NCBI GenBank assembly: GCA_020429915.1
Contig: JAGQKV010000005.1
Span: forward strand, 136,279 to 200,278
Direction: 5' to 3'
Source: Candidatus Omnitrophota bacterium
GTDB taxonomy: Bacteria > Omnitrophota > Gorgyraeia > Zapsychrales > Zapsychraceae
DNA length: 64,000 nt
Under the pieces are notes generated by a model. That model made no database searches, was not told where the DNA came from, and worked only from the letters and a program-made list of their open reading frames with translations. Of the stretch, positions 17,760 to 36,136 are shown one piece after another; within the stretch, counting starts at the first letter, position 1; the number at the start of each line of letters is the position of its first letter. A program made the translations under genes and the position numbers.

Positions 17760-18641
17760 ATGAATATCGAGAATAAAAAACAGTTCGCCACTATCGCGCT
17801 GGCGGTAGGCTTGGGTCTGACGGCCGCATTTTTAATGTCCCAATACGTCAAGAGCAGCATTGAGAACCAAACAAAGGCCTTGGCGAAGGATTATGAGAAG
17901 AAGGCGGCCGCACAAACCGCGGCATTGCGCAAGGAAATGGAAATCAAGAACCGGGAACTGCAGAAGCAAATGCAGGCTATGGCCAAGCAGCAACAGCAGG
18001 CCCTTGCTCAGCAGCTCGCCAACCTTCCCAAAGGCGGTGGAGTCAAGGCGACTACCGGGGTTCCCACGCAGATCGTCGATAGTACGGTCTTCGCGTCCAT
18101 TACTCCTCCGGGAAAGCGCGCCATCACATTGCTTATCGACTCGCTGTCCGCGGTCGGCGGTTTGGTCAATCCGGGCGACTATGTTGATATTTTGGGCGAA
18201 CTGGAGATTCCGCATCCCCAGGATCCTCAGGAAAAGCCGATTGAAATCACCTCTGTTCTGTTCCAGAACGTTCAGGTGCTGGCGGTCAATGCGAATTTTA
18301 AACCCGTGGGAAGCGCGCTGGTCTATCAGCAGCAGCAAAAGTCTCGGGCCCTTAACGTGACGCTGGCGGTCGATCCGGAAGAAGCCGGTTTGATCACATT
18401 TGCTCAAAAGTACGGAAAACTCAAGCTGGCGTTGCGCTCGCCAGCCGAGAAGGAGACCAAAGCCCTACAGGTGGCGGCCTGGGATTCCCTCGCCGACTAC
18501 GTTTTAGATAAACAAGGTACAGAACTTAATCTACCAAAAGCCAAAGCGCCGAGCAGGGTGGAAAACGACTACGTAGAAGAAGACTTGCAGGTCGATGATA
18601 CGCCCTTTGTGGAAATATTTCGGGGAGGCAGGGAGCTATAA
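17760..18641 (+). CDS. cpaB: Flp pilus assembly protein CpaB/RcpC-like
   Basis: N-terminal TM and coiled coil. The C-terminal RcpC-like block reads RAITLLIDSLSAVGGLVNPGDYVDILGEL...VQVLAVNA...LNVTLAVDPEEAGLITFAQKYGKLKLALRS. Confidence 0.7.
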   Translation: MNIENKKQFATIALAVGLGLTAAFLMSQYVKSSIENQTKALAKDYEKKAAAQTAALRKEMEIKNRELQKQMQAMAKQQQQALAQQLANLPKGGGVKATTGVPTQIVDSTVFASITPPGKRAITLLIDSLSAVGGLVNPGDYVDILGELEIPHPQDPQEKPIEITSVLFQNVQVLAVNANFKPVGSALVYQQQQKSRALNVTLAVDPEEAGLITFAQKYGKLKLALRSPAEKETKALQVAAWDSLADYVLDKQGTELNLPKAKAPSRVENDYVEEDLQVDDTPFVEIFRGGREL

Positions 18642-18644
18642 ATC

Positions 18645-20330
18645 ATGAAAACATCAACACACAGTAAATTTCTCACTTGGTTCATACTATCTTTGGTATT
18701 GCTGTTCGGAATGGGATTTCTGCCGGGTCAGGCCGCGCATGCGGAAGATATGGTGGATACCGTGTACGCCGATGAGGTCAACATGATTTTGGGTGAATTA
18801 ACCCAGCTAAAAGTCTACTCCTTAACCAGGCTTTCCATGACCGATCCGGAAATTGCTGATGTTGTTGATGCCGACGACTCACAAATCCTGCTGATTGCCA
18901 AGAATACGGGTCAAACTCCCTTGTTTATCTGGGACGAATACGGCAAGAGGGTCGTGATGATTAACGTGTCCGGGACCGAACTGACTTCGATTGCCGACCG
19001 CCTGCAAAAACTCTTCACCGATGCCGGCCTGAAGCACGTTTATCTGGACGTCAACGGACCTGAGGGCAAGGTCGTCATTACCGGTACTGTTCCCGAATAC
19101 AAGCAAATTCTTTTCGAGGATATTGTTTCCCCCTTTGATGAGCATATTATTAGCTTGGTAGAAGAGCAGGATATCGAAGACCTCGTCCAAATTGATGTTC
19201 AAATCACAGAGTTGAGTACCACGTTGACTAAGAGTCTCGGTATCGACTGGTTCTCGGCCGGAAGCGGCTCCGGAGATTCAGGATCCGGAGGAGGCCCTCT
19301 CAAGCTGAGTTACGGGGAAGATATTCCTACTTTTGACGGTTCGGTGGGCGATTTCTTCAAAATCGGTGATTTCCGCCGGGCAGACTCGCTGGTGGCCACG
19401 GTGAACGCCTTATTGGAAGAAGGGATGGGACGCATCCTCTCTCAACCGAAGTTGGTTGTCTTGAGCGGGGAAGAAGCGAGTTTTCTGATCGGGGGGGAAA
19501 TTCCGATCCGGACCACGACCTCCACCGGGGATTCCGTTCAAGAGAACGTGGAATTCAAAGAATACGGGGTGGGGATGACTGTAACCCCAACTATTCGCAA
19601 GGAAAAGATCGACGTCATCCTGAATATTGAAATTAGCGATATCGATGCCGCTAACGCCGTTGGCGAGGACGTCGCTTTCACTACGCGGAGCGCTAGTTCG
19701 CAGCTCTTTTTGGATGACGGGCAAACGATCGTCCTGGCTGGTTTGATTCAGCAGCGTACGGCGGAATCAATCAAGAAAGTTCCCTATTTGGGTGAAATCC
19801 CGATCCTGGGTCTGATGTTCCGGTCCAGATCCACTCCGACGCCGGATTTGGATACCGAGTTGGTAATCTCCCTGACGCCGTACCGCATTGATACGGGCTT
19901 GAATCCATTAACTACGGAAGAACACAAACGGATGAAGGATCAACCGAGATCCTCCGTTTCCCGCGCTGTGGTTGATGACATGGATATGAAGGAAGCGCCT
20001 AAACCCATGGCCACATCGGCTGTGCGCATTCCGGATGAAATGAAGGATTATGTGCGTGAAGTACAACGCAAGATATCTCAACAAATCGTTTATCCGCGGG
20101 AGGCCCGCGAATATGGTTGGGAAGGTACGGTTAAGCTCGGATTGCACATCCTGAACGACGGTACGCTGGCGTATGCCTTGGTCAAGGAATCTTCGGGCCA
20201 TGAAGTTTTTGATGATTACGCCCTAAATACGGCCAAAAACAGCGCTCCGTACAACAGTTTTCCTTCAGATTCCGACCTTCAGGAACTGAATATTACAATT
20301 CCCATCGTCTACAGTTTGCAAAGGAATTGA
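18645..20330 (+). CDS. cpaC: Pilus secretin (CpaC/RcpA family) with C-terminal TonB_C-like domain
   Basis: Signal peptide, then the secretin core (ILSQPKLVVLSGEEASFLIGGEIPIRTTT...EFKEYGVGMTVTPTI...TIVLAGLIQQ...VPYLGEIPILGLMFRS). The last 90 aa or so match the TonB C-terminal fold: YPREAREYGWEGTVKLGLHILNDGTLAYALVKESSGHEVFDDYALNTAKNSAPYNSFP. Confidence 0.85.
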   Translation: MKTSTHSKFLTWFILSLVLLFGMGFLPGQAAHAEDMVDTVYADEVNMILGELTQLKVYSLTRLSMTDPEIADVVDADDSQILLIAKNTGQTPLFIWDEYGKRVVMINVSGTELTSIADRLQKLFTDAGLKHVYLDVNGPEGKVVITGTVPEYKQILFEDIVSPFDEHIISLVEEQDIEDLVQIDVQITELSTTLTKSLGIDWFSAGSGSGDSGSGGGPLKLSYGEDIPTFDGSVGDFFKIGDFRRADSLVATVNALLEEGMGRILSQPKLVVLSGEEASFLIGGEIPIRTTTSTGDSVQENVEFKEYGVGMTVTPTIRKEKIDVILNIEISDIDAANAVGEDVAFTTRSASSQLFLDDGQTIVLAGLIQQRTAESIKKVPYLGEIPILGLMFRSRSTPTPDLDTELVISLTPYRIDTGLNPLTTEEHKRMKDQPRSSVSRAVVDDMDMKEAPKPMATSAVRIPDEMKDYVREVQRKISQQIVYPREAREYGWEGTVKLGLHILNDGTLAYALVKESSGHEVFDDYALNTAKNSAPYNSFPSDSDLQELNITIPIVYSLQRN

Positions 20331-20386
20331 CCTCGGTATATAATACTGTCTCTTATAAAAATACCGAGAGGTTTTAGAAGCAGGGC

Positions 20387-22552
20387 ATGAATTGTAGAGT
20401 CATTTCTATCTTCAGCAGCAAGGGAGGCGTCGGAAAAACCCTTGTGGCTGTTAATCTTGCGACCGCATTGAGCAAATCCGGCAAGCGTGTCCTGCTGGTT
20501 GATCTTGACTTTCAGGCAGGCCAGGATATGGCCCGCATGCTCAACCTCGCCATTCGCAATTCCATCGTCGATATCATTCCGTTGATGCAGCAAGGTGGTG
20601 AAGCGCTCGAAATCAACGAGCACGCCACGAAACATCAGAGCGGTCTACATTTTATTCCCGCCGTTAAGACCAGCAAGCAAATCGCGCACATCACCCCGGA
20701 TAATATCAAGCCTTTTTTCCGCGAGTCCAAAAAACGTTACGACTACATCATTATTGATGCCGGCCGATCGTTTAGCGATGTTCTCATTTCCGCGCTGGAC
20801 TTTACCAATTTGATATTGCTGGTAGCCACACCCGACGTATTGGCTGTTTACCAGACCAAATGGTGCCTGGAGATCCTTCAGAACCTGCACTATCCCACCA
20901 AGATGATCAAACTTATTCTGAACCGGTCGGAAAGCCGGGGGAGTGTTGCGTGGCAGGAAATCCGCCAGGTGTTACAGGTGGAAATTTTCGGGCACATACC
21001 GTCTGATGGGAAAACTGTGGGGATGGCTCTTAACCGGGGGGTCCCGTGCTACATGGACAGTCCGCGCAGCCCGGTGGCCGAGGCATTCGGCAAAATGGTC
21101 GGACTGCTGAAGAAAGACAATCTTTATATCGAGACACATGATGTGGAAAAGACTCGGACGGTAGACGGATTTATGGCGCCGGGGGCGTTTTGGAAGAAAT
21201 TCGGGATATCCCAGCAGTCCTTCGGCACATCGGTGACCGAATATGTATCCGAAGAGGACGATATTATCTCTCTCAAGAAGCGCATTCACGAAAAGCTGGT
21301 GGAACGGCTTAACTTAGACGGTATTTCTACAGACGCCTTGGCCGACCCGGACACGGCGCAGAAGATTAAGAAAAGCGCTGAACAGGTCGTGCTTACACTT
21401 TTACTGGATGAGGCCGGGGGCCGTATATCCAACCAAGAAGACCGCACGCGGATTGTCCGGGATATTGTCAACGAGGCTCTGGGGCTGGGGCCACTGGAAG
21501 ACTTTTTGGCGGACCCGGACGTTACGGATATCATGGCCAACAACAAGGACGAAATTTATATTGAGAAGAACGGTAAGTTGATATTTACCAATAAGAAGTT
21601 TGTCTCGAACGACAAAATGCGCTCGATCATCGACCGGATCATTGCCCCGTTGGGACGGCGTATTGATGAGTCGACGCCCATGGTTGATGCGCGACTGCAG
21701 GATGGATCACGGATCAACGCGATCATCCCCCCTCTTTCCCTGAATGGGCCGATGATTACGATCCGGAAGTTCGGTCAGGAGCGGTTGGAGGCTGAGGATT
21801 TGATCACCCGTTATCAAAGTATGTCCCGGCCCATGGCCGACTTCCTTAAGGCCTGCGTAAGCGCCCGTAAGAACTTAATTGTCTCGGGCGGGACCGGCGC
21901 AGGCAAGACAACACTCTTGAACGTGGTCTCCGAGTTTATTCCTGATGGGGAACGTATTATCACGATTGAGGATGCTGCCGAGTTGAAATTAAAGAAAAGC
22001 CATTGGGGACGGCTTGAATCCCGCCCTGCCAATGTGGAGGGGAAGGGGGCGGTTACCATCCGTGATCTGTTCATCAACTGTCTGCGGATGCGTCCGGACC
22101 GTATTGTGGTCGGCGAATGTCGGGGCCCGGAGGTTCTGGACATGCTTCAGGCCATGAATACCGGGCATGACGGTTCTATGACCACTCTGCACGCTAATTC
22201 CACCCGTGATGTCGTTACCCGTATGCACTCCATGATCCTTCTGAGCGGGATTGAGCTGCCGGTCCGCGCGATCAATGAGATGATTTCTTCGGCTGTCCAG
22301 GTAATTGTCCATATCAACCGTTATTCGGATGGGACCCGCAAGATTACGGGTATCAGCGAGACCGCCGGGCTCTCGGCAGATTTTCAGCTCATCCTAAAAG
22401 ACATTTTCATTTTTCGGCAGAAAGGTCTGGATTCGGACGGAAATGTCCAAGGATCCTTTGAGGCAACGGGATTCTTACCGCAGTGCTTTGATGACTTTAC
22501 CACCAAAGGCATCCTCTTTGAAAAGTCATTATTTGATAAACCAGCCGTGTAG
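20387..22552 (+). CDS. cpaF: Fused MinD/ParA-like (CpaE/TadZ ATPase domain) - CpaF/TadA secretion ATPase
   Basis: The N-terminal 260 aa have the deviant Walker A SSKGGVGKT (CpaE/MinD-like). The C-terminal 450 aa are CpaF-like (IRKF, GGTGAGKTTLLN, VGECRG, GHDGSMTTLHANS). Confidence 0.85.
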   Translation: MNCRVISIFSSKGGVGKTLVAVNLATALSKSGKRVLLVDLDFQAGQDMARMLNLAIRNSIVDIIPLMQQGGEALEINEHATKHQSGLHFIPAVKTSKQIAHITPDNIKPFFRESKKRYDYIIIDAGRSFSDVLISALDFTNLILLVATPDVLAVYQTKWCLEILQNLHYPTKMIKLILNRSESRGSVAWQEIRQVLQVEIFGHIPSDGKTVGMALNRGVPCYMDSPRSPVAEAFGKMVGLLKKDNLYIETHDVEKTRTVDGFMAPGAFWKKFGISQQSFGTSVTEYVSEEDDIISLKKRIHEKLVERLNLDGISTDALADPDTAQKIKKSAEQVVLTLLLDEAGGRISNQEDRTRIVRDIVNEALGLGPLEDFLADPDVTDIMANNKDEIYIEKNGKLIFTNKKFVSNDKMRSIIDRIIAPLGRRIDESTPMVDARLQDGSRINAIIPPLSLNGPMITIRKFGQERLEAEDLITRYQSMSRPMADFLKACVSARKNLIVSGGTGAGKTTLLNVVSEFIPDGERIITIEDAAELKLKKSHWGRLESRPANVEGKGAVTIRDLFINCLRMRPDRIVVGECRGPEVLDMLQAMNTGHDGSMTTLHANSTRDVVTRMHSMILLSGIELPVRAINEMISSAVQVIVHINRYSDGTRKITGISETAGLSADFQLILKDIFIFRQKGLDSDGNVQGSFEATGFLPQCFDDFTTKGILFEKSLFDKPAV

Positions 22553-25983: not shown

Positions 25984-26310
25984 ATGCTTAAGTACTTCAA
26001 CAAAAGAAAGAAAAAAGGTCAGAGTACGTTGGAATACGCTATTCTGATTATCATTATTATCGGTGCGCTGTTGTCAATCCAGGTCTACATCAAGCGTGGT
26101 GTTCAAGGCCGTTTGAAGGGCGCTGCTGATGACATCGGTGATCAGTTCTCTAACGGAAACACGAATGTCGTCAAGAAAATGATCACTTCTTCTCAAACAC
26201 GTGACACATTCGCATCAGGTGTGACTGCATCCACTTTGACTCAGGATGAAGTCACGCTGGAAATCATGAACTCTGACGTTATGAATCTTAACCAAGAGTT
26301 CTGGGGATAA
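25984..26310 (+). CDS. Pilin-like protein 4 (108 aa, RGVQGRLKG motif)
   Basis: KRKKKG|QSTLEYAILIIIIIGALLSI, with SD AGGAGG. Confidence 0.7.
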   Translation: MLKYFNKRKKKGQSTLEYAILIIIIIGALLSIQVYIKRGVQGRLKGAADDIGDQFSNGNTNVVKKMITSSQTRDTFASGVTASTLTQDEVTLEIMNSDVMNLNQEFWG

Positions 26311-26349
26311 TAAGTATTGTGTAATATAATCACAATATGAAAATTCCTT

Positions 26350-26405
26350 AAACAAAACATGGCTTATTCGGGGGGATTTCTTCTCGGGTAAGCCATGTTT
26401 TGTTT
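26350..26405 (+). terminator. 17-bp stem hairpin after pilin gene 4 (terminator or mRNA stabiliser)
   Basis: AAACAAAACATGGCTTA pairs with TAAGCCATGTTTTGTTT across a 22-nt loop, followed by T-rich sequence. A TATAAT box at about 26459 lies downstream. Confidence 0.5.
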
Positions 26406-26497
26406 ATGTTTGTTAATATCTGCTGGCGACTGACCTTGGTGATTTGGCACCAATTGCGCTATAATATAGTAAGAACGCAATGCCCATAAGGATTCGC

Positions 26498-26893
26498 ATG
26501 CTACGAAAAATACCAAAAATCAGGATCACCGGTCAAAGGGGGCAGATGATTGCCAGCGAGTACGTTATTACGTTATTTATAGTTGTGGCTGTTATCTCAG
26601 GTCTTTCCGTTTTTTTCCGGCGGGCCGTACAGGGGCGTATCCGGGACGCCCATAACAGCATGCTCAATATAGTTCGGGATCGTATTGGGTCTCAATATGC
26701 GGGCAATAGCGTCTACATTCAGTATGAACCGTACTACCGCATTACCGATTCTGAATCGACTGTGGCCAACAACAATCAGAAGCAGGTACTTCCTTCATAC
26801 CCCTTATCTTCGGGGCTTTACCGGTCGAACCCGAATGAACAGTCACTGAGAATATCGAATACGACGACACTACCACCTGTAAATGCGGATTAA
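26498..26893 (+). CDS. Pilin-like protein 5 (about 131 aa, QYEPYY motif)
   Basis: Start chosen at the ATG with SD AAGGA (MLRKIPKIRITGQRGQMIASEYVITLFIVVAV). The track ORF begins at 26480 without an SD. Confidence 0.6.
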   Translation: MLRKIPKIRITGQRGQMIASEYVITLFIVVAVISGLSVFFRRAVQGRIRDAHNSMLNIVRDRIGSQYAGNSVYIQYEPYYRITDSESTVANNNQKQVLPSYPLSSGLYRSNPNEQSLRISNTTTLPPVNAD

Positions 26894-26895
26894 CT

Positions 26896-27240
26896 ATGCT
26901 TAAGAGTCTCGCCAAAAACAAAGAAGCACAGTCCATGATTGAGTATACTACTATACTTATCACTGTTATGGCGGTAATCGCGGCTATGAGTACCCTTGTT
27001 CGCCGTTCGTCGCAAGGTTGGATTAAGTTGGTGGCTGACCAGATCGGCGTGCAAAATCTTGCAGACCAAAGCTTTAACGACCTGAGGCAGGCGCAACTGG
27101 ATTCCAGCTACTCGCTTGTTCGATCTGATACCTCGAAAAGTACCTTAGAAACGGCCGGGATTATCAACTATATTTTTGATGACGCCGTTCGTACCGACGG
27201 AAATCAGTCCATTAATCTGGGGATCGTGCCGGAGCCCTAA
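26896..27240 (+). CDS. Pilin-like protein 6 (114 aa, Ala at -1)
   Basis: KNKEA|QSMIEYTTILITVMAVIAAM. Confidence 0.7.
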   Translation: MLKSLAKNKEAQSMIEYTTILITVMAVIAAMSTLVRRSSQGWIKLVADQIGVQNLADQSFNDLRQAQLDSSYSLVRSDTSKSTLETAGIINYIFDDAVRTDGNQSINLGIVPEP

Positions 27241-27258
27241 TACCTGCGAGGATAGATT

Positions 27259-27582
27259 ATGCTTAAGGTGTTGAAAATAAAAAACAAAGGACAATCAGCG
27301 ATAGAGTATTCGGTAATCCTGATTGTCCTTATGGGGGCCTTTTTGGCTTCGGCGAATTACTTTAAGCGGGGCGTTCAGGGCCGATGGAAGGAGTCCACAG
27401 ACTCATTGGGAGATCAGTATGATCCGCGGACATCAAATGGGCTGATCATCCATCGTTTGATCTCTAACCAAGCCACAGCCCTTACCGCTATTAGTACGCC
27501 TCAAGGATTGCAAACCACCAGACAGGATCAAACCAACTCATTGGAGCTAAAAAGCGGTTCTATCAACGTGGGAGCCTATTAA
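27259..27582 (+). CDS. Pilin-like protein 7 (107 aa, RGVQGRWK motif)
   Basis: KNKG|QSAIEYSVILIVLMGAFLA. Confidence 0.7.
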   Translation: MLKVLKIKNKGQSAIEYSVILIVLMGAFLASANYFKRGVQGRWKESTDSLGDQYDPRTSNGLIIHRLISNQATALTAISTPQGLQTTRQDQTNSLELKSGSINVGAY

Positions 27583-27603
27583 CTTGCCAAAGGGGCAACG
27601 GAC

Positions 27604-28896
27604 ATGAATCCGACGGTCGGATCAAAAAAGCATAGCAAGGCTCAAACCGCAATAGAGTTGGCGGTTTTCGGTTCTGTTATTATTTTTCTGATGGGGTTGA
27701 TTGTCCGAGCGGTGCTTGGGACGTCTTATCAACAAGGCAGCCAATTAAAGGCGCTCCGTCTGGCCATGTTGACCTCCTTTGAGTATAGCGAAGGGATCAA
27801 GGCGCCGCCGGGAGATTGGCGGGATGGAACGACCTCCCGTAACGCCGCATCTGTTTTAATCATCGAAGACCGGCTTTCAGCATCTTCCGCAAAATTCGCC
27901 ACGGTGGACCGGACGCCGATTTTATCTCAAGGAACCGCTACGCATTCGCGGAACTTATTCATGCCGGTGGAAATAGGTGAGTACGCCAATATTCCCATCG
28001 CAGATTTCTTCGTCAATGGTGTACATATTCCATTAACCTTAGGAGGGTTTGTGACCCACCCGTTGGATGACGTTGTTTTCCGGCAACGATTTAACCATGA
28101 GGCCACCGATTTTCGGCAATGCAGCGGGAACGTAAATTCGGTGTTCGAAGTCGTGAACGGAACGACTTGGTATCGCTTCGATCTGGATCACAGCGGCGGC
28201 GTGCCCAATGACGGGGTGGATGACACCAACTGTGACGATTTTTTCTGGCAGTGGCATGCCGGAGATCCCAGCCGGATTGATCCCGAGACCGGCGAGTGGA
28301 CAAACGTCGATGTGGATGCTGATGGTTACCCCGAACAGGTCTTGAGGGTAAACGGGGCTGCCAGCGTTACCACGTTGGATTATCAGGAAGGCGATATATA
28401 TTTCTCCAATGATCCGTCTGTCCCGGCGCCGGGATTCGGAAATCAGGAGGTCCAGATGTTTACGTTCTCCGACAATCCCCTGGGCACGGGCGACGGCGTA
28501 GGCACCTATTTGCGGGTAGATGAGGGGCGGTTATTTTCCCCGCTGACGGGACGGTACGCTCGGGATGCCCAGCGCAAGGACTCCGTAGACATCATCCAGC
28601 GAACGTTGCAATTGACCAAAAACACGGAAAGATTCTGTACTAATGCCGGAGTGTTAGTCACGGCCGGAACACCGGAGGGGAATCGGGCCGGATGGACGGC
28701 AGCGACCCCTAATCCTGTGGAAGTATGTTGTAGTGGCAGCGGATGTTGTTTTGGTCCGGTTACCATAACCCAGACTTGTATGGTGTATGATCAGCCGTAT
28801 CCGCTCATTTATGTGCGGAGTAGAATCGTGGATAAGCACGGCCGGAAGTATATTACACCGACCGACTCCGATCCGGTTGTAAACTTCACACGATAA
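27604..28896 (+). CDS. TadE-like pseudopilin with large C-terminal domain (430 aa)
   Basis: SKA|QTAIELAVFGSVIIFLMGLIVRAVLG matches the TadE-type N-terminus. The C-terminal region contains CCSGSGCC. Confidence 0.65.
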   Translation: MNPTVGSKKHSKAQTAIELAVFGSVIIFLMGLIVRAVLGTSYQQGSQLKALRLAMLTSFEYSEGIKAPPGDWRDGTTSRNAASVLIIEDRLSASSAKFATVDRTPILSQGTATHSRNLFMPVEIGEYANIPIADFFVNGVHIPLTLGGFVTHPLDDVVFRQRFNHEATDFRQCSGNVNSVFEVVNGTTWYRFDLDHSGGVPNDGVDDTNCDDFFWQWHAGDPSRIDPETGEWTNVDVDADGYPEQVLRVNGAASVTTLDYQEGDIYFSNDPSVPAPGFGNQEVQMFTFSDNPLGTGDGVGTYLRVDEGRLFSPLTGRYARDAQRKDSVDIIQRTLQLTKNTERFCTNAGVLVTAGTPEGNRAGWTAATPNPVEVCCSGSGCCFGPVTITQTCMVYDQPYPLIYVRSRIVDKHGRKYITPTDSDPVVNFTR

Positions 28897-28950
28897 GAAG
28901 TATTGTCGAAAAGAGTTTGTATGTATAATGGTAAAGGCAGGTGATGCAAG

Positions 28951-29247
28951 ATGTTGAAAACTCAGTGCAGAAAGGCCGCCAAATCACGTGGACAGACCAT
29001 GATCGAATTCACGTTTTGTATGATTATCGTATTTTTGATGATTTACTCTATCACCAAGGTTTTTGAATGGTCTGGTCGGGAACTGGTGTCGCGGAGAGTG
29101 GGACATACGTCCCGGTTAACGACTTCAGGCGGGGGCCTTACCCGAAGTTATACCTCCGCCGCCGATAGTGAGCAAATAGCCCAAATATCCCCGTTTTATT
29201 CTTCCGGGGTCGACATGAATGCCGTTTGGCGAGGCGGGGTTAACTAG
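28951..29247 (+). CDS. TadE-like minor pilin (98 aa)
   Basis: KSRG|QTMIEFTFCMIIVFLMIYSI. Confidence 0.6.
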   Translation: MLKTQCRKAAKSRGQTMIEFTFCMIIVFLMIYSITKVFEWSGRELVSRRVGHTSRLTTSGGGLTRSYTSAADSEQIAQISPFYSSGVDMNAVWRGGVN

Positions 29248-29251
29248 AATA

Positions 29252-32200
29252 ATGACCAAATTTCTTCACAATCTCCAGCGTTCGAAAAAAGGTCAGGTGG
29301 CCGTCGTAATACTGTTGATTGTGGCCTTTGCCCTCATTTTTTATGCCGCTACGTTGAATCTGGGTCGCATCGGGCAAAACAAAGTGGTTACGCAGATCGG
29401 CGCCGCGCAAGGGGCATCCGCATTGGCCTCGGCCATGGCCAGTTACGGGCAATCCCTGTTTATGCAACAATTGGGCGGCCGCCAGAAGAAATGCCAGTCT
29501 TCCGGGCTGTTGGGGGCCATTTTGGGATTTGTTTTGGCCGTCGTTCTTACCATATTTCTCTGGGAAGCGGCACCCGCCACCATGCAGCTCGCCGCCCAGG
29601 CCCTTTTGGTCATCGGGACGGTCCTGGCGGCCACAAGTCTAGTCCTACAAATTACCGTCATACAACCGGGTATTACCAGTGCGTGGAACAGCCTAGCAGC
29701 GGATCTCTTGCCGCTTGTGGACCAGTTTATGGAAAATGCGCTACGGGGTGCGCTGCAAAGTGCGACCTCAGACCCGGTTCAGGTTCCTGACCTGAACGAT
29801 ATGGATCTGGACGGGTCGTTCGGTTTGGATGCGGTGACCAGTGAGGCGATCGACAACATATCCCGGTTCAGTCTGTACTATGCCCAGATATTTGACGGTA
29901 TTACGGTCAACTTTATCCCCGAAGCAGAGAATTTTCAGGTGGCCCTTCAGGATTTTGTCTACCAGTTGCCTCCCGTAGGTCCGAACACCACGGCCGGGGG
30001 ACTTCCCGCCACCTGTGGTGCTGCTCCGGCCTGCGGACCCGATCAGGAATGTGTCGATGTGGAAACCGCCCCCGTTTGTGTCCCGGCATGGGGGCTTTGG
30101 GATCCTCTCCCCGAGTATTTTGTCCCCGGGCCCATTCGGCCGCCACCAATTGATGTTATCTATCCATTTACGATACCACAAGATTTGACGCACCCGTGCT
30201 TTAGTGATCCTGCGAACGTACCATCGGTGTGTAATCCGTGTTGTCTTCCGTTAACGACACCTGACCCCAGGGGACCTTCCTTCGGTCAGCTGAGGGCTAG
30301 GCCCGGTTGTTGCGAGTGTTCTACCCTGCCCTCCGTCATCACCATTCCGGACCCCACCGACCCGACCGGTGTAGCGACGATAGATGTGTTTAATCCGGAT
30401 TTCTGTACCGTGGACGGATGTATTGATGCGTGTGGCGGCCCGTTGCAATGCCCTGTAAACGCGGCATCGCGGGCCTGTTGTGATGCTTGCGGGGATATTA
30501 CCCAGGAATGTGGAACGTCAGCCACCTGTCAGGCCCTCAGCCCCTACGGATTCACCGAGCCCACACTGGGAACCTTTTACGCGTGGGTCTATAACGCCTA
30601 TGAAGAAAATTGGGAAAACTCGTTCCGGTCCTTCCGTGAGCAACTCGGCCGGGATGATGAGCACCGTCTGTATTTCAAGGATTCCAGCAACCCCAATTGG
30701 GCGCCACAATTTGCCCCGCCTTGGCTGGGAAGTCGGTTTTATGCGGACGACTCGACTGGTTTTTATATCGGTCTTCCGGTCGTTCCTCCGGCTGTCGGGG
30801 AAAACCGGCGTGGCGTCTTTCCATTTTTATGGAAGATTACAACGTGGGGGTATGATCTGGATGATTTAACCACGCCCGATCCTACGGATGTGGATCCCAT
30901 TGATGATCCGTTTGACCAACGCTGTAAGTGGTGCGATGAAAATCGCGGGGTGGTTTGTGATCCGCGTCTGCCGTATCAGATGGTACAGTTAAATTTACCC
31001 TTTGATCCCACAACTCTAACTATTTACCCAACATACTGCGTCGACACCTATATTGATAACGTCAGTCTGATCCCATCAGGGGGATCGCTTGAATATCCTG
31101 CCGCGACGTGTGTCGATCCGGATACGTATGCAGGAAACGCATTTTGGAAGCGGGGCGCCGACCGGTTCTGTTCGGAAGGCGACATTGGCGGGGATTCTGC
31201 CTGGCCATATGAAAGCCAGTGTCCGAAATATACGGATGGTGGCTGTTTCCTGGATCCAAACGGCAACGGGGTGGCTGACTGTCCGGCAGAGTGCGACACG
31301 AACGGCAACGCGATTCCGGCCCTCTGCCAGTGTGGCGATCCCTCGGCGACGGATCCTTTGCTCGTACGCGGGGATCTCTTCCCGGAAGATGTATTGGATG
31401 AGCTCATATATGGTTTGACCGCGTTTTTTGACGATGCCAACGCATTTCTTGCCAGGGGACGGGCGAACATCGCTATTGATTTTGAGAATTGGTTTAACGA
31501 CTGGCAGGCCTGGATTGACCCCGGTCCATGGGCCAATCAAGCCGATGTGCTCGGCGATCCGGCTTATCCCAATCCTTATCCGGACTGCTACCCTTGGGAT
31601 ACCGACTATGACCCATCAACGCCCGACGTCTGCCAATCGGAGCCCGGGCAACTGTATTATTGGCTGCGTAACATCAATTTGATTCATGATGAACTTATTG
31701 AGATCAAGGAGACAAGCCATGCCGGCGTCAACTGTAACCGGGACCCGTGGTGCGTTCCCATTGCCGGTTGTGCAGATGTATCCGCATTTGAAGAGGTTAC
31801 ATTCGATTATAATGCCAATGGCATCAACGGCGATGTCGAAGACATCATCGCATGTCTGACATTCAATGTGGATGGCTACGACTACGCTTGTAACGGCGGC
31901 GTTCCAGACGCTACGTGTCTGAGGGCTACGGGAGACCGACAGGGGAACGATTTCCGTTATGCCAATTGTATGTTGTCCTGTTCAGCCGCGGCATGTACCA
32001 ATTTGCCGCGGTCTGTGTTGGCGCCCGCAACTTACGATCCGAACGCATATGTAGCGGCAAACGTCCTGGACGAACCGGATATGTCGGCCATGCTCTTGTG
32101 TGTCCACAGCTGTGGTAATCCCACTTGCACCGCCTTGCCCGCAAACCGGAGTTCAGACGGGACGCCGTACGTTTATACGGCTACGCCGCCGCCGGCCTTT

Positions 32201-33172
32201 GATCCGGCCTTGGATTGTACCGGATTACAGCTGAATGATGCCAACGGCTGGCGGACAGCTGTCCGGGATTCTCTGTTGATGGCTAACCCTACATGTGACA
32301 TCGCACCCGGAGGCTGGCTGGATCTGACCGGGACTTCGGCTATTGAGGCTGCAAATCAAGTTATAAAGATGCAATTGCGCCGCGACTTTCTCGAGGATCT
32401 CGTCAACGATATGAATCAGTTTATCGTCACCATGAATACGGCCCGGATCAAGTTTTATGAGTTTCTGACGGCCCCCGGCCCAGTGGCCGACCTGATTCAG
32501 GCTCGATTTGACTATGATGCGAATCCACCGGATCATTTCCCGTTCCAGGCCATTTATGGCTGGCAGGATCCGATCCCGCCTGAAATTCGTCTGGGAGCCC
32601 CGGGAGGCGAATCCTATTGGCATATCGTCAAAGTTGAGGGACGAATGCCCAAGAGGTGTGACAATGCCTGCGGTGTAGGCGGAAATCCGGATCCCGAGTG
32701 GCCCAAAGTCCGCACATATACCAAGAAGATGGGATTGAAGCGATGTTATGAACTGGTTAACACAGATGGTATCGTCAAATTCCGTGTGTTACGTTTTGAC
32801 GAGGCGCCTAATTCGACGGGAAGTGGTCTCACATTCCCGAACGGACAGCCGCTGTGGAAATTCCGTTTCTTCCACCCCAGCCCTAATCGAGGGGATGTTG
32901 ATGCCGCTACACTGGGGACCACATGTGACTCGATTATGATCACAGATCCCAGAGTGCCGGTAGATACGTTCAAAGGGGCGTTTTTCATGAACCAGCGGGT
33001 CGGAACTGGAGATACAGACCCTGTTTTGGGGAATAATTGGAACTGTTGGAACAGAACCCACTTCATTCTTGCCAATGGCGGGATTGGAACAGAAGTGTGC
33101 GCACAATATTACCTTAAACAGGGTGTTCGCCCCGGTATGACATTTTCATTTATCCCTTGCGAAGCGTTCTAA
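29252..33172 (+). CDS. Giant TadG-like pilin-domain protein (1306 aa) with two extra TM helices and an extremely Cys-rich extracellular region
   Basis: Start at the ATG 29252, just after the upstream gene's stop at 29247. N-terminus SKKG|QVAVVILLIVAFALIFYAATLNLGRIG is TadE/G-like (PF13400 type). More than 70 Cys, in CxxC, CC and CxC clusters. Confidence 0.7.
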   Translation: MTKFLHNLQRSKKGQVAVVILLIVAFALIFYAATLNLGRIGQNKVVTQIGAAQGASALASAMASYGQSLFMQQLGGRQKKCQSSGLLGAILGFVLAVVLTIFLWEAAPATMQLAAQALLVIGTVLAATSLVLQITVIQPGITSAWNSLAADLLPLVDQFMENALRGALQSATSDPVQVPDLNDMDLDGSFGLDAVTSEAIDNISRFSLYYAQIFDGITVNFIPEAENFQVALQDFVYQLPPVGPNTTAGGLPATCGAAPACGPDQECVDVETAPVCVPAWGLWDPLPEYFVPGPIRPPPIDVIYPFTIPQDLTHPCFSDPANVPSVCNPCCLPLTTPDPRGPSFGQLRARPGCCECSTLPSVITIPDPTDPTGVATIDVFNPDFCTVDGCIDACGGPLQCPVNAASRACCDACGDITQECGTSATCQALSPYGFTEPTLGTFYAWVYNAYEENWENSFRSFREQLGRDDEHRLYFKDSSNPNWAPQFAPPWLGSRFYADDSTGFYIGLPVVPPAVGENRRGVFPFLWKITTWGYDLDDLTTPDPTDVDPIDDPFDQRCKWCDENRGVVCDPRLPYQMVQLNLPFDPTTLTIYPTYCVDTYIDNVSLIPSGGSLEYPAATCVDPDTYAGNAFWKRGADRFCSEGDIGGDSAWPYESQCPKYTDGGCFLDPNGNGVADCPAECDTNGNAIPALCQCGDPSATDPLLVRGDLFPEDVLDELIYGLTAFFDDANAFLARGRANIAIDFENWFNDWQAWIDPGPWANQADVLGDPAYPNPYPDCYPWDTDYDPSTPDVCQSEPGQLYYWLRNINLIHDELIEIKETSHAGVNCNRDPWCVPIAGCADVSAFEEVTFDYNANGINGDVEDIIACLTFNVDGYDYACNGGVPDATCLRATGDRQGNDFRYANCMLSCSAAACTNLPRSVLAPATYDPNAYVAANVLDEPDMSAMLLCVHSCGNPTCTALPANRSSDGTPYVYTATPPPAFDPALDCTGLQLNDANGWRTAVRDSLLMANPTCDIAPGGWLDLTGTSAIEAANQVIKMQLRRDFLEDLVNDMNQFIVTMNTARIKFYEFLTAPGPVADLIQARFDYDANPPDHFPFQAIYGWQDPIPPEIRLGAPGGESYWHIVKVEGRMPKRCDNACGVGGNPDPEWPKVRTYTKKMGLKRCYELVNTDGIVKFRVLRFDEAPNSTGSGLTFPNGQPLWKFRFFHPSPNRGDVDAATLGTTCDSIMITDPRVPVDTFKGAFFMNQRVGTGDTDPVLGNNWNCWNRTHFILANGGIGTEVCAQYYLKQGVRPGMTFSFIPCEAF

Positions 33173-33195: not shown

Positions 33196-33558
33196 ATGCT
33201 TGTGCAAATTCATAGCCGTAAGGCTCAGTCCACAATTGAGATAGCCAGCTTGGTGGTCTTTGTGCTCACGGCAATGTTAATCTTTCAGAAATACATCGCG
33301 CGCGGTATGTATGGCCGCTGGAAACAGGTCGGTGAATCCTTCGGACAAGGTCGTCTTTACGATCCAATTACTTCAGTTGCCTGCGGCTACGATCAGTGGC
33401 AGGATACCGGTCTTTGGTTCAATCAAACCTGTTTTGACGAGGATTGCGGCGAACGGGATTGCGTCGCCGAGACCAAAGATGATGCTAACTGCGTAACATG
33501 TATTAGCACAACTTGTCGATCCAGTTATGGTGGTCGCGACGTATGTAACGATCCGTAA
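33196..33558 (+). CDS. Pilin-like protein 11 (120 aa, Ala at -1, Cys-rich C-terminus)
   Basis: Start at the ATG with a GGAGG SD. SRKA|QSTIEIASLVVFVLTAMLIF, plus the ARGMYGRWK motif. Confidence 0.65.
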   Translation: MLVQIHSRKAQSTIEIASLVVFVLTAMLIFQKYIARGMYGRWKQVGESFGQGRLYDPITSVACGYDQWQDTGLWFNQTCFDEDCGERDCVAETKDDANCVTCISTTCRSSYGGRDVCNDP

Positions 33559-33735: not shown

Positions 33736-34593
33736 ATGCTGATCCTAATCCTACTTTTGGTCGCGGCCTCGGTAACATTAATCGGCTGGCAACTTATTCC
33801 GAGTGTCTACAGCCGCACGGCCGTTATCAGCGAGCGACGTCAACAAAAGCTCTCCAATACCATGGAGAAGGTGATGTCGCGGACGGATGCCCGCAAGCTC
33901 AGCCGGGTGTTCATTATGGCCCCGCTCATCCTTTCCGCGGGTTTCTATTTCATTTTCCCAGCAGAAATGCGGTTTTTTGGTATCGTCTTCGGTCTTATTC
34001 TGGGCCTCCTGTTTCCGGGTATTTATATCCAGATGTTGACCGGTAAGAACCGGGAAAAATTCGACGCGCAACTCATTGATGCCCTTATGATTATGTCCAG
34101 CTCCTTCCGCGGGGGGTTGAGTTTGGTCCAGGCCATGGAGGCCGTGGAGCAGGAAATGCCGGATCCGATCCGCAAGGAGTTCGGTATTGTCCTCGGGGAA
34201 AACAAGATGGGGGTTTCGCTGGAAGAGGCCCTCAACCACCTGTACAATCGTATGTCATCCATATCTTTGCAGCAAATGATCACGGCCATCTTGCTGGCCC
34301 GGGAAACCGGTGGTAACCTGCCGGTTATTTTTAATCGGATTGTAACCAATATTCGTGAAAGCCGAAAGATACAACAGAATTTGGATACACTTACGATCCA
34401 GGGGAAAATTCAGGGGGCGGTTATGACCCTGCTTCCCATCGGGTTCGGTTTTATTGTTTACTCCACGAACCCACAGATGATGGAAAATATGTTCACATCG
34501 CAACTCGGCCGCAGTTTGTTGATCTACGCGGCCTTTTCGTGGTGTATCGGGGCCTACATGGTGTGGAAAATTAGTACTTTTAAGGATTTCTAG
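33736..34593 (+). CDS. tadB: Flp pilus assembly inner-membrane protein TadB (T2SS-F fold)
   Basis: 285 aa, with TM helices and a cytoplasmic GspF-like domain. Confidence 0.8.
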   Translation: MLILILLLVAASVTLIGWQLIPSVYSRTAVISERRQQKLSNTMEKVMSRTDARKLSRVFIMAPLILSAGFYFIFPAEMRFFGIVFGLILGLLFPGIYIQMLTGKNREKFDAQLIDALMIMSSSFRGGLSLVQAMEAVEQEMPDPIRKEFGIVLGENKMGVSLEEALNHLYNRMSSISLQQMITAILLARETGGNLPVIFNRIVTNIRESRKIQQNLDTLTIQGKIQGAVMTLLPIGFGFIVYSTNPQMMENMFTSQLGRSLLIYAAFSWCIGAYMVWKISTFKDF

Positions 34594-34594
34594 T

Positions 34595-35467
34595 ATGTTT
34601 GCTATCTTATTGATTAACACATACTTATGTATATTTTTTATGATAATGGGACTAATCCCGGTGCAATGGGAACACCGTCCGACATTGAGCGCCTTGGGGA
34701 TTCAGCCCACGGCTCCGAAAAAGAAAAAAAGCCTGACTTCAATCATCCGGATTATTGCCAAGCTCAACAAGCCGGTCTGCCAAGGGGGGTTGCGGCAGCG
34801 CATCGAGAAGGAGCTGTCCATAGCGCATATCAATATCACGCCTGAGGAATTTGTATTGGCAAAAGAGTTATGTATTATACTCGTATTGTTTGTTACGTAT
34901 CCGGCGATTAGCCCGGATATGATGATGTTTTGGCTGTTCATGAGCATGGGGGTCGGGTATGTATTGCCGGAACTCCTTGTGCGCAATAAGATTAAGAAGG
35001 TGAAGGCGACAATTGTCAAAGAGTTGCCGGATGCGATCGACTTATTGGGGTTGTGTGTAAATGCGGGGCTTGACTTCATGCTGTCTCTCAAATGGGTGGT
35101 GGAAAAGTCACCACCCTCCGTAATGATCGACGAGCTCAACGTAGTATTGCAGGAAATTAATGTCGGGAAAACCCGCCGGGATGCTATCAAGGACTTAGCG
35201 GCACGTTATGAACTCCCGGATCTGTCCACTTTTTCCCGAACGCTTATCCAAGCCGACAAAATGGGGACTTCGGTTACCGAGGCCCTGAATATTCTCTCCG
35301 AAGACATGCGCCAGGCCCGTTATCGCCGCGGTGAACAGTTGGCCCTTAAGGCACCAATGAAGATGCTTGTGCCGCTGCTGATGTTCATTTTTCCGGTTGT
35401 AGGTATCCTGGTGGCCGGTCCGATTCTCCTCGACTTTATCGAAAACAATCCGTTCGAAAAGATGTAA
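34595..35467 (+). CDS. tadC: Flp pilus assembly inner-membrane protein TadC (T2SS-F fold)
   Basis: 290 aa, GspF-like (LPDAIDLLGLCVNAGLDF...). Its ATG is adjacent to the tadB stop. Confidence 0.8.
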   Translation: MFAILLINTYLCIFFMIMGLIPVQWEHRPTLSALGIQPTAPKKKKSLTSIIRIIAKLNKPVCQGGLRQRIEKELSIAHINITPEEFVLAKELCIILVLFVTYPAISPDMMMFWLFMSMGVGYVLPELLVRNKIKKVKATIVKELPDAIDLLGLCVNAGLDFMLSLKWVVEKSPPSVMIDELNVVLQEINVGKTRRDAIKDLAARYELPDLSTFSRTLIQADKMGTSVTEALNILSEDMRQARYRRGEQLALKAPMKMLVPLLMFIFPVVGILVAGPILLDFIENNPFEKM

Positions 35468-36136
35468 CGCGGGACTGCTTGCGAGATGGATGCTTAGTAG
35501 CAGCTTTTCTCCAAAGGGCTTTTTTGCGGTTCCGTGCCATTCCTCATGCACTTCCAATAGTTGACAAATAGCCACATCATTTTGCATACAAGTCCGTCCT
35601 TTGGCGGAATTCGCTGTTTCAAAATACCAGATGGGATTCGTGAAGTATTCGAATTTTTTGAACACTACATGCACGCTTTTTTTCTGTGGAAAGCACAACA
35701 TATGGGGGCCGCGGCCAAGGATATGACGAAAAATCTTCAGCGACACAAATTCAAAGGGCTCATATTTTCGTTCTAAGGCCCTTTTTTTGCGAGAAAGCGC
35801 TAAACGTAGGGGAATGTATTGTCCAAAAAGAAAACGTCCAAAATAGGGCTGTTTTTAGCCAGATTGGACATTTGCGGTTGGTGTGGAGCCTCAATCTGCT
35901 ACCACCACCAGTTGTCGTGACGTTCGGTCTGCATAATCACAAAGGAGCCATTGCGCTTTAGATTGCAAGTATCAGGTTCGTTCATCGGTCAGTATTTTCT
36001 GAAGGCGCCCGGTTCAGTGGGCTCTCATCACCGCGGATGCGGATGTATGTAAGCCTATTTAATAATATTTGTAATTTTTTAGCCGGATCAAAACACCTCC
36101 CGGCCGACGACGGTGTTTATACATGCGGAGACAACT

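Follow-up and report, generated by a model that had tools for sequence, protein, structure and literature searches.

A cysteine-rich protein family in the TadG slot of Omnitrophota Tad/Flp pilus loci, with a candidate role at the pilus

An Omnitrophota genome carries, adjoining its replication origin, a complete Tad/Flp locus in which one gene occupies the slot of tadG and encodes a 1306-residue member of an unannotated family; the locus was analysed within a 64,000-nucleotide stretch of DNA, here called the window. This TadG-slot protein most likely has a large disulfide-bonded outer domain, probably forming a host-binding head or the base of the pilus. We tentatively read it as a divergent TadG/CpaL/KilN-type tip protein for host attachment, which we regard as quite possible, and the function of "tip adhesin or anchor" put forward by the first-pass annotation is one that we infer.

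The reading frame is single and intact at the length first given for it. An in-frame ATG at 29219, upstream of the start at 29252, would extend the protein to 1317 residues, and an identical 1317-residue protein (P0001) comes from an independent assembly. A profile search returned 857 cluster representatives at E<=1e-3, many covering the whole family profile, and collinear full-length matches are found in more than 100 cluster representatives and in 35 genomes; the members span about 720-1900 aa and are, within the searches run, which included 35 Omnitrophota genomes, confined to Omnitrophota. Searches of Pfam, NCBIfam, PDB sequences and PDB folds with the TadG-slot protein gave no match, and Pfam domains were likewise not found in 24 of its homologues. 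A frameshifted fusion of smaller genes, that is, an annotation or assembly artefact, was a concern raised in the first-pass annotation itself; its probability is vanishingly small, nothing was seen that speaks for it, and it is ruled out by the collinear full-length relatives and the stop-free frame, next to which stands the identical protein from the independent assembly.

Features of the locus and of the TadG-slot protein (residue numbers refer to the 1306-aa form)
Feature	Position in window	Strand	Basis or remark
rcpC/cpaB, secretin fused to TonB_C domain, TadZ-TadA fusion ATPase	17760..22552	+	Domain matches
Six tandem Flp-like pilin genes, 94-137 aa	24945..27582	+	G/A-X4-EY motifs in sequences
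430-aa pseudopilin-like protein	27604..28896	+	AQTAIEL motif, Glu at +5; Cys-rich C-terminus
98-aa TadE-like pseudopilin	28951..29247	+	GQTMIEF motif; PF07811 TadE E=0.021, below cut-off
TadG-slot giant protein gene, 1306 aa	29252..33172	+	ATG 29252, TAA 33170-33172, one stop-free frame
Basic leader (RSKKG), hydrophobic helix 1 (aa ~15-38), amphipathic continuation; aa 1-75	29252..29476	+	Hydropathy
Cys81 codon TGC	29492..29494	+	4 residues ahead of helix 2; predicted partner Cys1165
Helix 2, short loop, helix 3: hydrophobic helical hairpin, aa 85-135	29504..29656	+	Hydropathy
Conserved acidic region, VIQPGIT.AWN ... VPDL.D.D.DG ... SRF..YY, aa 136-240	29657..29971	+	Occupancy 0.9-1.0
Variable insert 1, aa 241-320, contains CGAAPACGPDQECVDVETAPVCVP	29972..30211	+	Occupancy 0.20-0.47
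Variable insert 2, aa 361-420, contains CTVDGCIDACGGPLQCPVNAASRACCDACGD	30332..30511	+	Occupancy 0.07-0.28
Strongly conserved block, SFREQLGRDDEH and GVFPF.YK..DWG, aa 441-540	30572..30871	+	Occupancy 0.72-0.97
Most conserved domain, aa 1021-1306, contains Cys1165	32312..33169	+	Conservation and AF2
Cys1165 codon TGT	32744..32746	+	Predicted beta-strand KRCYELV; predicted partner Cys81
120-aa pseudopilin-like protein	33196..33558	+	AQSTIEI motif; 8 conserved C-terminal Cys
tadB, platform gene	33736..34593	+	T2SSF (tadB/tadC E 5e-17 and 7e-14)
tadC, platform gene	34595..35467	+	T2SSF (tadB/tadC E 5e-17 and 7e-14)

Judging by RcpC, the secretin, the TadZ-TadA fusion, two T2SSF matches and a weak TadE match, the locus is a genuine Tad locus. 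In homologous loci, the Flp-like pilins give weak Class_IIIsignal or Flp_Fap matches. The three pseudopilin neighbours of the TadG-slot gene all have Glu at +5 and recur at nearly every one of 35 loci, the 430-aa protein, for which Pfam and NCBIfam searches gave no match, being syntenic in 33, the 98-aa protein present at 31 and the 120-aa protein at 34. The Cys-rich C-termini that had been noticed in two of them are indeed there: the 430-aa protein has 8 Cys, 6 of them within its last 90 residues, and in the 120-aa protein all 8 lie in the C-terminal half. At loci L001 and L003-L005 the 430-aa gene is followed by the 98-aa gene, the TadG-slot gene, the 120-aa gene, tadB and tadC, in this order; as far as contigs extend, the arrangement recurs in each of the 35 Omnitrophota species genomes compared. 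Directly 3' of tadC in the window there follows a giant open reading frame of at least 9000 codons. The Omnitrophota Tad locus has been associated with a predatory or parasitic lifestyle (PMC10066038).

Synteny, the identity of the locus and an N-terminal likeness to TadG together place the protein in the TadG slot. In particular, the TadE/G-type N-terminus first noticed in the sequence, with KKGQVAVVILLIVAFALIFYAATLNLGRIG, is present, and residues 1-75 resemble the TadG / PF13400 N-terminus. Against a profile of genuine TadG proteins, hhalign aligned 64-67 columns in register at E=8.5e-4, with a probability of only 24%, the match ending at column 71 and covering only the first ~67 residues; control comparisons were weaker (E=0.033 and 0.35). 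PF13400 itself was matched in only 2 of 62 member scans, below cut-off at E 0.002-0.007 (1 of 24 relatives at E 0.007, 1 of 39 at E 0.002), and did not match the protein in the window. PF09977 (Tad_C) and PF26942, which genuine TadG controls do carry, were found in none of the 62 scans; NCBIfam TadG and TadG-related models did not match any of 24 members at E<=1, and a VWA domain with MIDAS motif was not found with Pfam or NCBIfam. Instead of the single N-terminal membrane helix of TadG, the family has three hydrophobic helices. The position in a tad locus beside TadE/TadF-type pseudopilins is that of a TadG. In other words, the first description of the protein as TadG-like holds for its slot and, weakly, for its first ~67 residues, and does not extend to any curated TadG model.

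The residue at +5 after the Gly is Val or Ile, not Glu (GQVAVV here; family consensus GQVAVI), so that of the G/A-X4-E/F prepilin-peptidase motif the Gly is there and the motif as a whole is not, and a conserved cleavage motif after helix 3 was not found in the family either. In the AF2 model of the relative P0012, residues 5-65 form one long helix. The two further hydrophobic helices, already claimed from the first reading, lie at about aa 85-105 and 113-135 and are family-wide: a hydrophobic block at about aa 70-140 occurs in 82 of 82 full-length members, whereas 21 genuine TadG proteins have the N-terminal helix alone in the corresponding region, with no hairpin. Ahead of helix 2 stand the basic residues RQKK, which is at odds with the positive-inside rule if this loop is periplasmic.

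Cysteine makes up 4.3% of the protein (56 in 1306 aa, fewer than the more than 70 initially counted), an excess over the 0.74% of 17 other window proteins with a binomial P of about 8e-25. Some 28-30 Cys columns are conserved family-wide, the counts are even in 21/24 members and in 67/82 full-length members, and columns are gained or lost as pairs (561/596, 779/794, 828/840, 880/889, 677/681). Cys81 and Cys1165 are both present in 141 and both absent in 18 of 159 relatives, a single one never occurring. In P0012, Cys73 (the equivalent of Cys81) lies within a short predicted beta-strand, 71-75, and the strand of Cys1165 falls at 1023-1029 in the model of the window protein and at 940-946 in that of P0012. 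The even counts, the paired gain and loss and the co-occurrence of Cys81 with Cys1165 point to cysteines that behave like extracytoplasmic disulfides rather than metal sites. The cysteines, whose periodicity of spacing had been proposed for counting, are irregularly spaced, and self-BLAST revealed no internal repeat. What had been likened to disulfide-knotted eukaryote-like modules showed no family match, repeat or PDB fold; VWA, EGF-like, TNFR-like and other known Cys-rich modules or Cys-repeats gave no match in Pfam or NCBIfam. The Cys-rich peptides singled out at that stage do exist, at aa 255-278 and 352-415, and belong to lineage-specific stretches (occupancy 0.07-0.28 in 82 relatives), not to the conserved core.

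Beyond the helices, column occupancy shows variable, lineage-specific inserts on a conserved scaffold. The acidic region is predicted to be mostly helical, with D174, D180, D183, G191, R205 and Y209 invariant. Insert 1 is the region of lowest identity to close relatives, and Cys255, 261, 267 and 276 of its CGAAPACGPDQECVDVETAPVCVP are shared by only 7-8 of 24 relatives, the closest ones; most Cys of insert 2 are restricted to the 3 closest relatives. In the block that follows, S460, G466 and D468 are invariant and D469, E470 and H471 nearly so, and aa 469-518 have an AF2 pLDDT below 50 (model residues 329-378) despite their conservation. The C-terminal domain is modelled with two helices, one of them ~50 residues long, and a sheet of about 8 beta-strands (in model numbering, to which 140 is to be added, helix H882-932 and strands 959-1161), and an invariant F.F.PC closes the protein. 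The models are of moderate confidence overall (pLDDT 70-71, pTM 0.60-0.65); pLDDT reaches about 90 or more between ~aa 800 and ~1090 and drops to mixed values of about 50-87 in the sheet. Compared with PDB folds, the models match nothing. The composition (D 8.5%, P 9%, K 1.8%, H 0.8%), acidic, Lys-poor and rich in Pro, Asn and Trp, is typical of an extracellular protein.

The TadG-slot protein would, on the reading that we tentatively prefer, be the TadG-slot component of an Omnitrophota Tad/Flp pilus, a divergent relative or analogue of TadG/CpaL/KilN. Helix 1 would anchor it N-in, the segment bearing Cys81 would be periplasmic, and helices 2 and 3 would form a hairpin that re-enters the membrane or else packs into a hydrophobic core. 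The remaining ~1170 residues would be extracytoplasmic, with about 28 disulfides stabilising them. The domain of helices and sheet at the C-terminus would return to the base, where a Cys81-Cys1165 disulfide would staple it to the N-terminal segment; in CpaL, similarly, the C-terminus comes back to the pilin module at the N-terminus. The invariant extreme C-terminus and the joint occurrence of Cys81 and Cys1165 speak indirectly for a C-terminal strand that would complete an N-terminal pilin module or a tip complex. The protein may form a priming or tip complex of the Flp filament together with the 430-, 98- and 120-aa pseudopilins, and its conserved scaffold would present variable, Cys-stabilised inserts for binding to the host or prey cell surface. 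An unlikely extension of this would be a novel class of Tad tip, in which alpha1 plus the hairpin mimics the helical core of the small Flp subunits and nucleates the filament alone, a conserved disulfide that joins the juxtamembrane strand near the N-terminus to the C-terminal sheet closes the polypeptide into a ring, and swappable, disulfide-stabilised inserts determine which hosts or prey the ultra-small predatory Omnitrophota can use. Such a tip might work with the adjacent giant surface protein.

The tip reading is weakened by the curated TadG models that fail to recognise the protein, by the hhalign probability of 24%, by the moderate confidence of the AF2 models, by the three helices and by RQKK ahead of helix 2. 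The main rival, which we consider doubtful, is that the protein is an inner-membrane-resident anchor or alignment subunit of the Tad system, never exported on the pilus: the hairpin would lock it in the membrane, and the disulfide-bonded domain, remaining in the periplasm, would serve as a docking partner for the base of the filament, for the secretin-TonB_C protein or for the giant protein encoded nearby. The two extra family-wide helices that genuine TadG lacks favour this, as do the missing Glu at +5, the missing cleavage motif after helix 3 and the predicted Cys81-Cys1165 staple, which would tie the C-terminal domain to a membrane-proximal segment. To our knowledge, three hydrophobic helices have no precedent among proteins that have to leave the membrane and be carried at a pilus tip. 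Tad systems are also not known to have PilMNOP-type alignment proteins, and TadG of A. actinomycetemcomitans was reportedly assigned to the inner membrane in older work; both would suit an anchor. However, the low-occupancy Cys-rich inserts and the roughly two-fold length variation are more easily reconciled with exposure at the surface, facing the host, than with a structural role in the periplasm; the gene lies in a group with three pseudopilin genes; and TadG/CpaL/KilN have recently been assigned to the tips of pili (PMC12075869, PMC13533445).

It is improbable that the locus is instead a type II secretion-like piston, with the TadG-slot protein capping a short pseudopilus in the manner of GspK, engaging the giant protein next to it, or other cargo, and helping to export or deploy it. 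A "T2SS-like locus upstream of giant genes" has indeed been described (10.1101/2023.11.21.568195; 10.64898/2026.06.07.730766), the giant frame directly follows tadC here, with counterparts of 7820 and 30865 aa in homologous loci, and TadG/CpaL is considered a GspK analogue (PMC13533445). Yet the ATPase, platform, RcpC and pilins are of Tad or Flp type, and the presence of six Flp-like genes speaks for a real filament; in L005, what follows tadC is two unannotated frames and sugar-modification genes, the nearest large frame lying ~5.6 kb downstream. What is more, the giant protein, which shares no sequence similarity with the TadG-slot protein, is nearly Cys-free (3 in 9018 aa) and begins with a C39-peptidase-like domain, features that may hint at a different export route. 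Highly improbable, finally, is a membrane-tethered cytoplasmic domain whose Cys pairs are Zn or Fe-S sites. Metal sites could equally yield even-numbered, co-varying cysteines, some spacings are CxxC-like (CKWC at 558-561, CNPCC at 327-331), and basic residues flank loop 1. But a known metal-binding domain, the refutation foreseen from the start, was not found in Pfam, NCBIfam or PDB sequences and so explains none of the Cys content; the scarcity of His, the irregular spacing, gain and loss mostly in twos rather than fours, and the extracellular-type composition argue against it, as do the N-terminus, which resembles a TadG signal-anchor, and the Cys-rich C-termini shared with neighbouring pseudopilins that bear class III signal motifs.

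Among known systems, TadG/CpaL likewise has its gene in a tad locus, with TadE/F-like pseudopilins as neighbours, and the basic leader, the G-x-V-A-V helix and its Ala-rich continuation align in register, Glu at +5 being absent from both; both have a large domain between the N-terminal helix and a conserved C-terminal beta element that appears to return to the base (PMC13533445). Unlike TadG/CpaL, the TadG-slot protein lacks PF09977, PF26942 and VWA/MIDAS, has two extra hydrophobic helices and a fold with no PDB match, and belongs to a family about twice as long, with 30-83 Cys per protein against 2-9 in genuine TadG. In Bdellovibrio, where the TadZ-TadA fusion is also present, TadG depletion impairs prey invasion (10.64898/2026.07.08.737194). 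CpaL/TadG has been described as analogous to GspK/PilK, the pilin module being completed by its C-terminal strand (PMC13533445, PMC12607857). GspK and PilK-PilX with the PilY1/PilC tip adhesins, from T2SS and type IVa pili, offer an apical subunit, a big insertion or attached ~1000-aa adhesin and display through a secretin, and completion of the minor-pilin sheet by a C-terminal strand has been proposed (PMC13533445); they match the TadG-slot protein in neither sequence nor fold. In predatory Myxococcus, TadE/F/G homologues build disulfide-rich Tip complexes on a large modular TadG/KilN backbone (PMC12075869). KilN of the KilL/M/N Tip of the Tad-like Myxococcus xanthus Kil predation pilus, compared here by its description, is a pilin that has one alpha1 helix and a site for the prepilin peptidase, whereas the TadG-slot protein lacks Glu at +5 and adds a hairpin. 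One module per locus is seen for the TadG-slot protein. KilN and the TadG-slot protein both come from predatory or parasitic organisms, and in both a large backbone of TadG type is combined with a domain of unknown fold, many predicted intramolecular disulfides, two or more accompanying smaller minor pilins and structurally variable, "adaptable" heads (PMC12075869).

The stop-free frame of the large gene, whose product occupies the TadG slot of the locus, runs from an ATG at 29252 to a TAA at 33170-33172 and encodes 1306 residues. Translation from an alternative in-frame ATG, at 29219, would lengthen the protein by 11 residues; the start at 29252 is favoured because most homologues have approximately 13 residues ahead of the GQ motif. 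The N-terminus, MTKFLHNLQRSKKGQVAVVILLIVAFALIFYAATLNLGRIG, reads GQVAVV, the Glu at +5 of the class III signal motif being missing, and three hydrophobic segments are seen in the Kyte-Doolittle profile (aa ~15-38, ~85-105 and ~113-135). A signal-peptidase site after the third helix, plausible in the window protein between ITSA and W, was rejected, as the -1 residue is unconserved across the family. The protein contains 56 cysteines and not the more than 70 claimed in the first-pass annotation, which still amounts to 4.3%, as compared to 0.74% for 17 further proteins encoded in the window (binomial P ~8e-25). Both Cys-rich peptides quoted in that annotation are present, and the Cys-rich C-termini it ascribed to the 430-aa and 120-aa neighbours are real (8 cysteines each, concentrated in the C-terminal parts). 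What is more, the large protein is acidic, low in Lys (1.8%) and His (0.8%) and rich in Pro, Asn, Trp and Tyr, a composition that looks extracellular-like.

A word-indexed search returned 24 homologues of 1039-1381 aa, none with a Pfam domain, the sole named one, which stems from a Candidatus Omnitrophota MAG, being a "hypothetical protein". In an exhaustive profile search, 857 cluster representatives scored E<=1e-3, of which 382 reached E<=1e-30; lengths range from ~720 to 1900 aa among the matches listed, many of which span the whole profile, and those that bear a name are, once more, hypothetical proteins of Omnitrophica/Omnitrophota. Finally, a scan of GTDB species genomes, with the motif SFREQLGRDDEH of the large protein as the search pattern, gave 35 loci, most of them labelled Omnitrophota or Omnitrophica; about 10 carry the labels "uncultured Planctomycetales/Planctomycetia" or plain "bacterium", which we read as putative placeholder names. 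Scans of the large protein, its neighbours and 62 family members against Pfam, NCBIfam and PHROGs gave nothing significant, and EGF, TNFR and VWA modules were consequently rejected. The family profile found no match among PDB sequences, and self-BLAST found no internal repeats. A profile of aa 1-245 likewise had no match in a set of 5.8 billion proteins, where the candidate list was probably swamped by hydrophobic words.

The window opens with a replication-origin region, and, given the position of these genes, the Tad locus and the giant gene that follows it lie within ~17-37 kb of dnaA; the Tad locus of V. archaeovorus LiM is similarly placed, at 12382-29832 (Seymour et al.). Downstream of the origin genes lies a complete Tad/Flp locus, encoding, in order, a Rotamase_2 PPIase, RcpC, a secretin-TonB_C fusion, a TadZ-TadA fusion, a DUF192 protein, a 552-aa protein (N-terminal HTH), six Flp-like proteins, the 430-aa protein (AQTAIEL), a 98-aa protein (GQTMIEF, with a weak TadE match), the 1306-aa protein, a 120-aa protein (AQSTIEI), TadB and TadC. 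The class III signal motif, complete with its Glu at +5, is present in all three small neighbours of the large gene. No gene for a TadV prepilin peptidase was found anywhere in the 64-kb window.

Features of the window, with coordinates and strand
Feature	Position	Strand	Remarks
ParB, ParA, YidC	within 17-12309	-	
DnaA, DnaN, GyrB, GyrA	within 17-12309	+	
tRNA-Glu	12379-12453		sole tRNA detected in the window
Secretin (T2SS-T3SS_pil_N + Secretin) fused to C-terminal TonB_C	18645-20330	+	
TadZ (ParA/MinD-like) + TadA (T2SSE ATPase) fusion	20387-22552	+	721 aa
552-aa protein	23008-24666	+	between DUF192 and Flp genes; weak N-terminal HTH matches only (HTH_32, Tc3-type)
Six tandem Flp-like genes	24945-27582	+	94-137 aa; G/A-X4-EY motifs
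430-aa pseudopilin-like gene	27604-28896	+	
98-aa pseudopilin-like gene	28951-29247	+	
Large gene	29252-33172	+	1306 aa
Motif SFREQLGRDDEH	30629-30673		aa 460-474 of the large protein; conservation among the highest in the family
120-aa pseudopilin-like gene	33196-33558	+	
Gap between tadC and giant ORF	35468-36933		~1.4 kb, short ORFs only
Giant ORF	36934-63999	+	open to window end, at least 9022 codons; likely start ATG 36946

Several of these genes deserve comment. The secretin-TonB_C fusion also occurs in three homologous loci (L001-L003), and a TadZ-TadA fusion (TadZA) has recently been reported in Bdellovibrio bacteriovorus (10.64898/2026.07.08.737194). The 552-aa protein may regulate the locus or be a machine component that has so far gone unrecognised; at its position, by which alone they were matched, L001 and L003-L005 have unannotated genes of 366-629 aa. 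The six Flp-like proteins are unusually long for Flp pilins and vary in their cleavage motifs (G or A before QxxxEY), and in the homologous loci about 6-7 small pilin-like genes form a similar run. As for the large gene itself, the order 430-aa gene, 98-aa gene, large gene, 120-aa gene, tadB, tadC is kept, as far as contigs reach, in all 35 loci, and likewise in four loci fetched by exact protein look-up. This makes the large gene a constant component of the Tad module in Omnitrophota and no fusion artefact.

An alignment of 82 full-length members separates conserved regions (aa 1-240, 441-540, 701-760, 801-920 and 1021-1306) from regions of low occupancy (aa 241-320, 361-420 (0.07-0.28), 661-680, 761-800 and 961-1000), which we take as insertion sites. 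The Cys-rich stretches that had first drawn attention lie within the first two inserts, where identity to close relatives dips, and most of their cysteines are confined to the 3-8 closest relatives. An AlphaFold2 model of aa 141-1306 of the window protein, built from a 24-sequence alignment (pLDDT 70.3, pTM 0.65), is mainly helical between aa ~800 and ~1090, with pLDDT of about 90 or more, and ends in a helix of ~50 residues, a second helix and a sheet of approximately eight strands, the confidence of the sheet being lower and mixed. In the model of a full-length homologue of 1103 aa (P0012; pLDDT 71.2, pTM 0.60), a 60-residue N-terminal helix is followed by a 5-residue strand with the equivalent of Cys81 and then by two hydrophobic helices; in this homologue, Cys73 and Cys942 correspond to Cys81 and Cys1165. 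The motif at aa 460-474 falls, despite its conservation, largely inside a segment of the window model where pLDDT is below 50, and may serve to bind a partner or metal/Ca.

How are the cysteines likely to be used? Even numbers are found in 21 of 24 members and, in the full-length set, in 67 of 82 (naive binomial P = 1.4e-4 and 2.6e-9, respectively, both inflated by relatedness), and several alignment columns gain or lose them in pairs (561/596, 779/794, 828/840, 880/889 and 677/681). Most telling are Cys81, four residues ahead of hydrophobic helix 2, and Cys1165, in a predicted strand of the C-terminal sheet. Namely, of the 159 relatives that have a residue at each of the two columns, both cysteines occur in 141 and neither in 18, with not one relative showing a single cysteine, and the pair is lost in several separate parts of the homologue ranking (P0011, P0024, P0106, P0118 and the P0137-P0162 group). 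This co-occurrence is strong evidence for a predicted Cys81-Cys1165 disulfide. Such a bond would place the C-terminal domain and the stretch ahead of helix 2 in one oxidising compartment, and helices 2 and 3 would therefore form a hairpin with both ends on the periplasmic side, with the caveat that the basic residues ahead of helix 2 (RQKK) are unusual for a translocated loop. It would also mean that the C-terminal domain is folded back onto the N-terminal base.

The giant ORF has a Peptidase_C39-like domain near its N-terminus (residues ~210-334, E=2.4e-6) and is very poor in cysteine (3 in 9018 aa, or 0.03%, versus 4.3% in the TadG-slot protein). A very large gene (7820, 30865 and >2198 aa) follows tadC by 0.7-2.5 kb in three of four fetched loci; in the remaining one, L005, the nearest large ORF lies ~5.6 kb downstream. 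The gap ahead of the giant ORF contains no Rfam family and no tRNA and could be a promoter or regulatory region of the giant gene. Gaps of 0.7-1.6 kb are found at the corresponding place in L001 and L003.

By analogy with known Tad tips, the reading that we tentatively place ahead of the others is that the large protein may serve in host attachment. Together with the three pseudopilins, it would prime the Flp filament and end at the filament tip, its conserved base closed by the Cys81-Cys1165 staple and its variable, disulfide-stabilised inserts turned toward the host, all of which we infer from gene context, covariation and the pattern of conservation. The chief rival starts from the same predicted hairpin, which would hold the protein back in the inner membrane, there to act as an anchor or as an alignment subunit; set beside the variable inserts and the fixed company of three pseudopilin genes, we consider it rather unlikely. 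A T2SS-like role tied to the giant protein would fit the proximity of the two genes; BLAST detected no module shared by the large protein with the giant ORF or the neighbours, nor did a family HMM search of the neighbours, and we regard this role as improbable.

Two further explanations concern the cysteines and the gene itself. A cytoplasmic metal-binding domain might account for a high Cys content, but is very unlikely: known domains of this kind were rejected, with no match in Pfam, NCBIfam, PHROGs or PDB sequences, and the paired cysteines point to disulfides. That the ORF is an artefact is more unlikely still, and a frameshift fusion was rejected on the strength of the homologues and the conserved loci.

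That Omnitrophota have a Tad locus, and that it is linked to giant genes, has already been published (PMC10066038; 10.1101/2023.11.21.568195; 10.64898/2026.06.07.730766). As far as these accounts were searched, we found no mention of TadG or of the large gene, nor, in PMC10066038 and 10.1101/2023.11.21.568195, a description of this ~1300-aa gene, which every source names "hypothetical protein". What we rate as new is a TadG-slot protein with a predicted hydrophobic hairpin, a predicted covalent N-to-C staple and a fold unmatched among solved structures. The locus and the general idea of a Tad tip complex are known, and the function of the large protein is inferred. That said, Omnitrophota are uncultivated, ultra-small bacteria, thought to be predators or parasites, and what their genomes reveal about host attachment comes mainly from the conserved Tad locus and the giant genes beside it (PMC10066038; 10.1101/2023.11.21.568195). 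No other conserved component of the pilus module is as large or as variable, which makes the large gene the obvious candidate for host recognition. It yields concrete, testable predictions on attachment, namely a Cys81-Cys1165 disulfide, a periplasmic topology and complex formation with the three named pseudopilins.

How close is this protein to TadG? PF13400 (Pfam Tad) was matched in 2 of 62 member scans, both below threshold, and the NCBIfam TadG models matched none of the 24 members scanned, at E<=1. Genuine TadG proteins from plasmid-borne tad loci carry PF13400 and PF09977. Against a 21-sequence TadG profile, hhalign placed the first 67 family columns in register with the TadG N-terminus (E=8.5e-4, probability 24%) and aligned nothing beyond them; as controls, the 430-aa pseudopilin family scored worse, both against the large family (E=0.033 over 11 columns) and against TadG (E=0.35). 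In view of these results, the large protein has the position of a TadG and a TadG-like N-terminal helix, yet fails most criteria of the curated family. Moreover, genuine TadG has a single helix in its N-terminal region and 2-9 cysteines, whereas the large protein has three hydrophobic segments and 56. In Myxococcus, the TadE/F/G homologues KilL/M/N form interchangeable disulfide-rich tip complexes, required for pilus formation and prey killing, with the large KilN/TadG as backbone (PMC12075869), and TadG depletion in Bdellovibrio impairs prey invasion (10.64898/2026.07.08.737194). In Caulobacter, CpaL/TadG is analogous to GspK/PilK; it carries the adhesin domain as an insertion and completes the pilin module with a returning C-terminal strand (PMC13533445, PMC12607857). 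The TadG/CpaL/KilN concept would be broadened by the protein described here, so as to cover a form in which a hydrophobic hairpin is combined with a covalent N-to-C staple.
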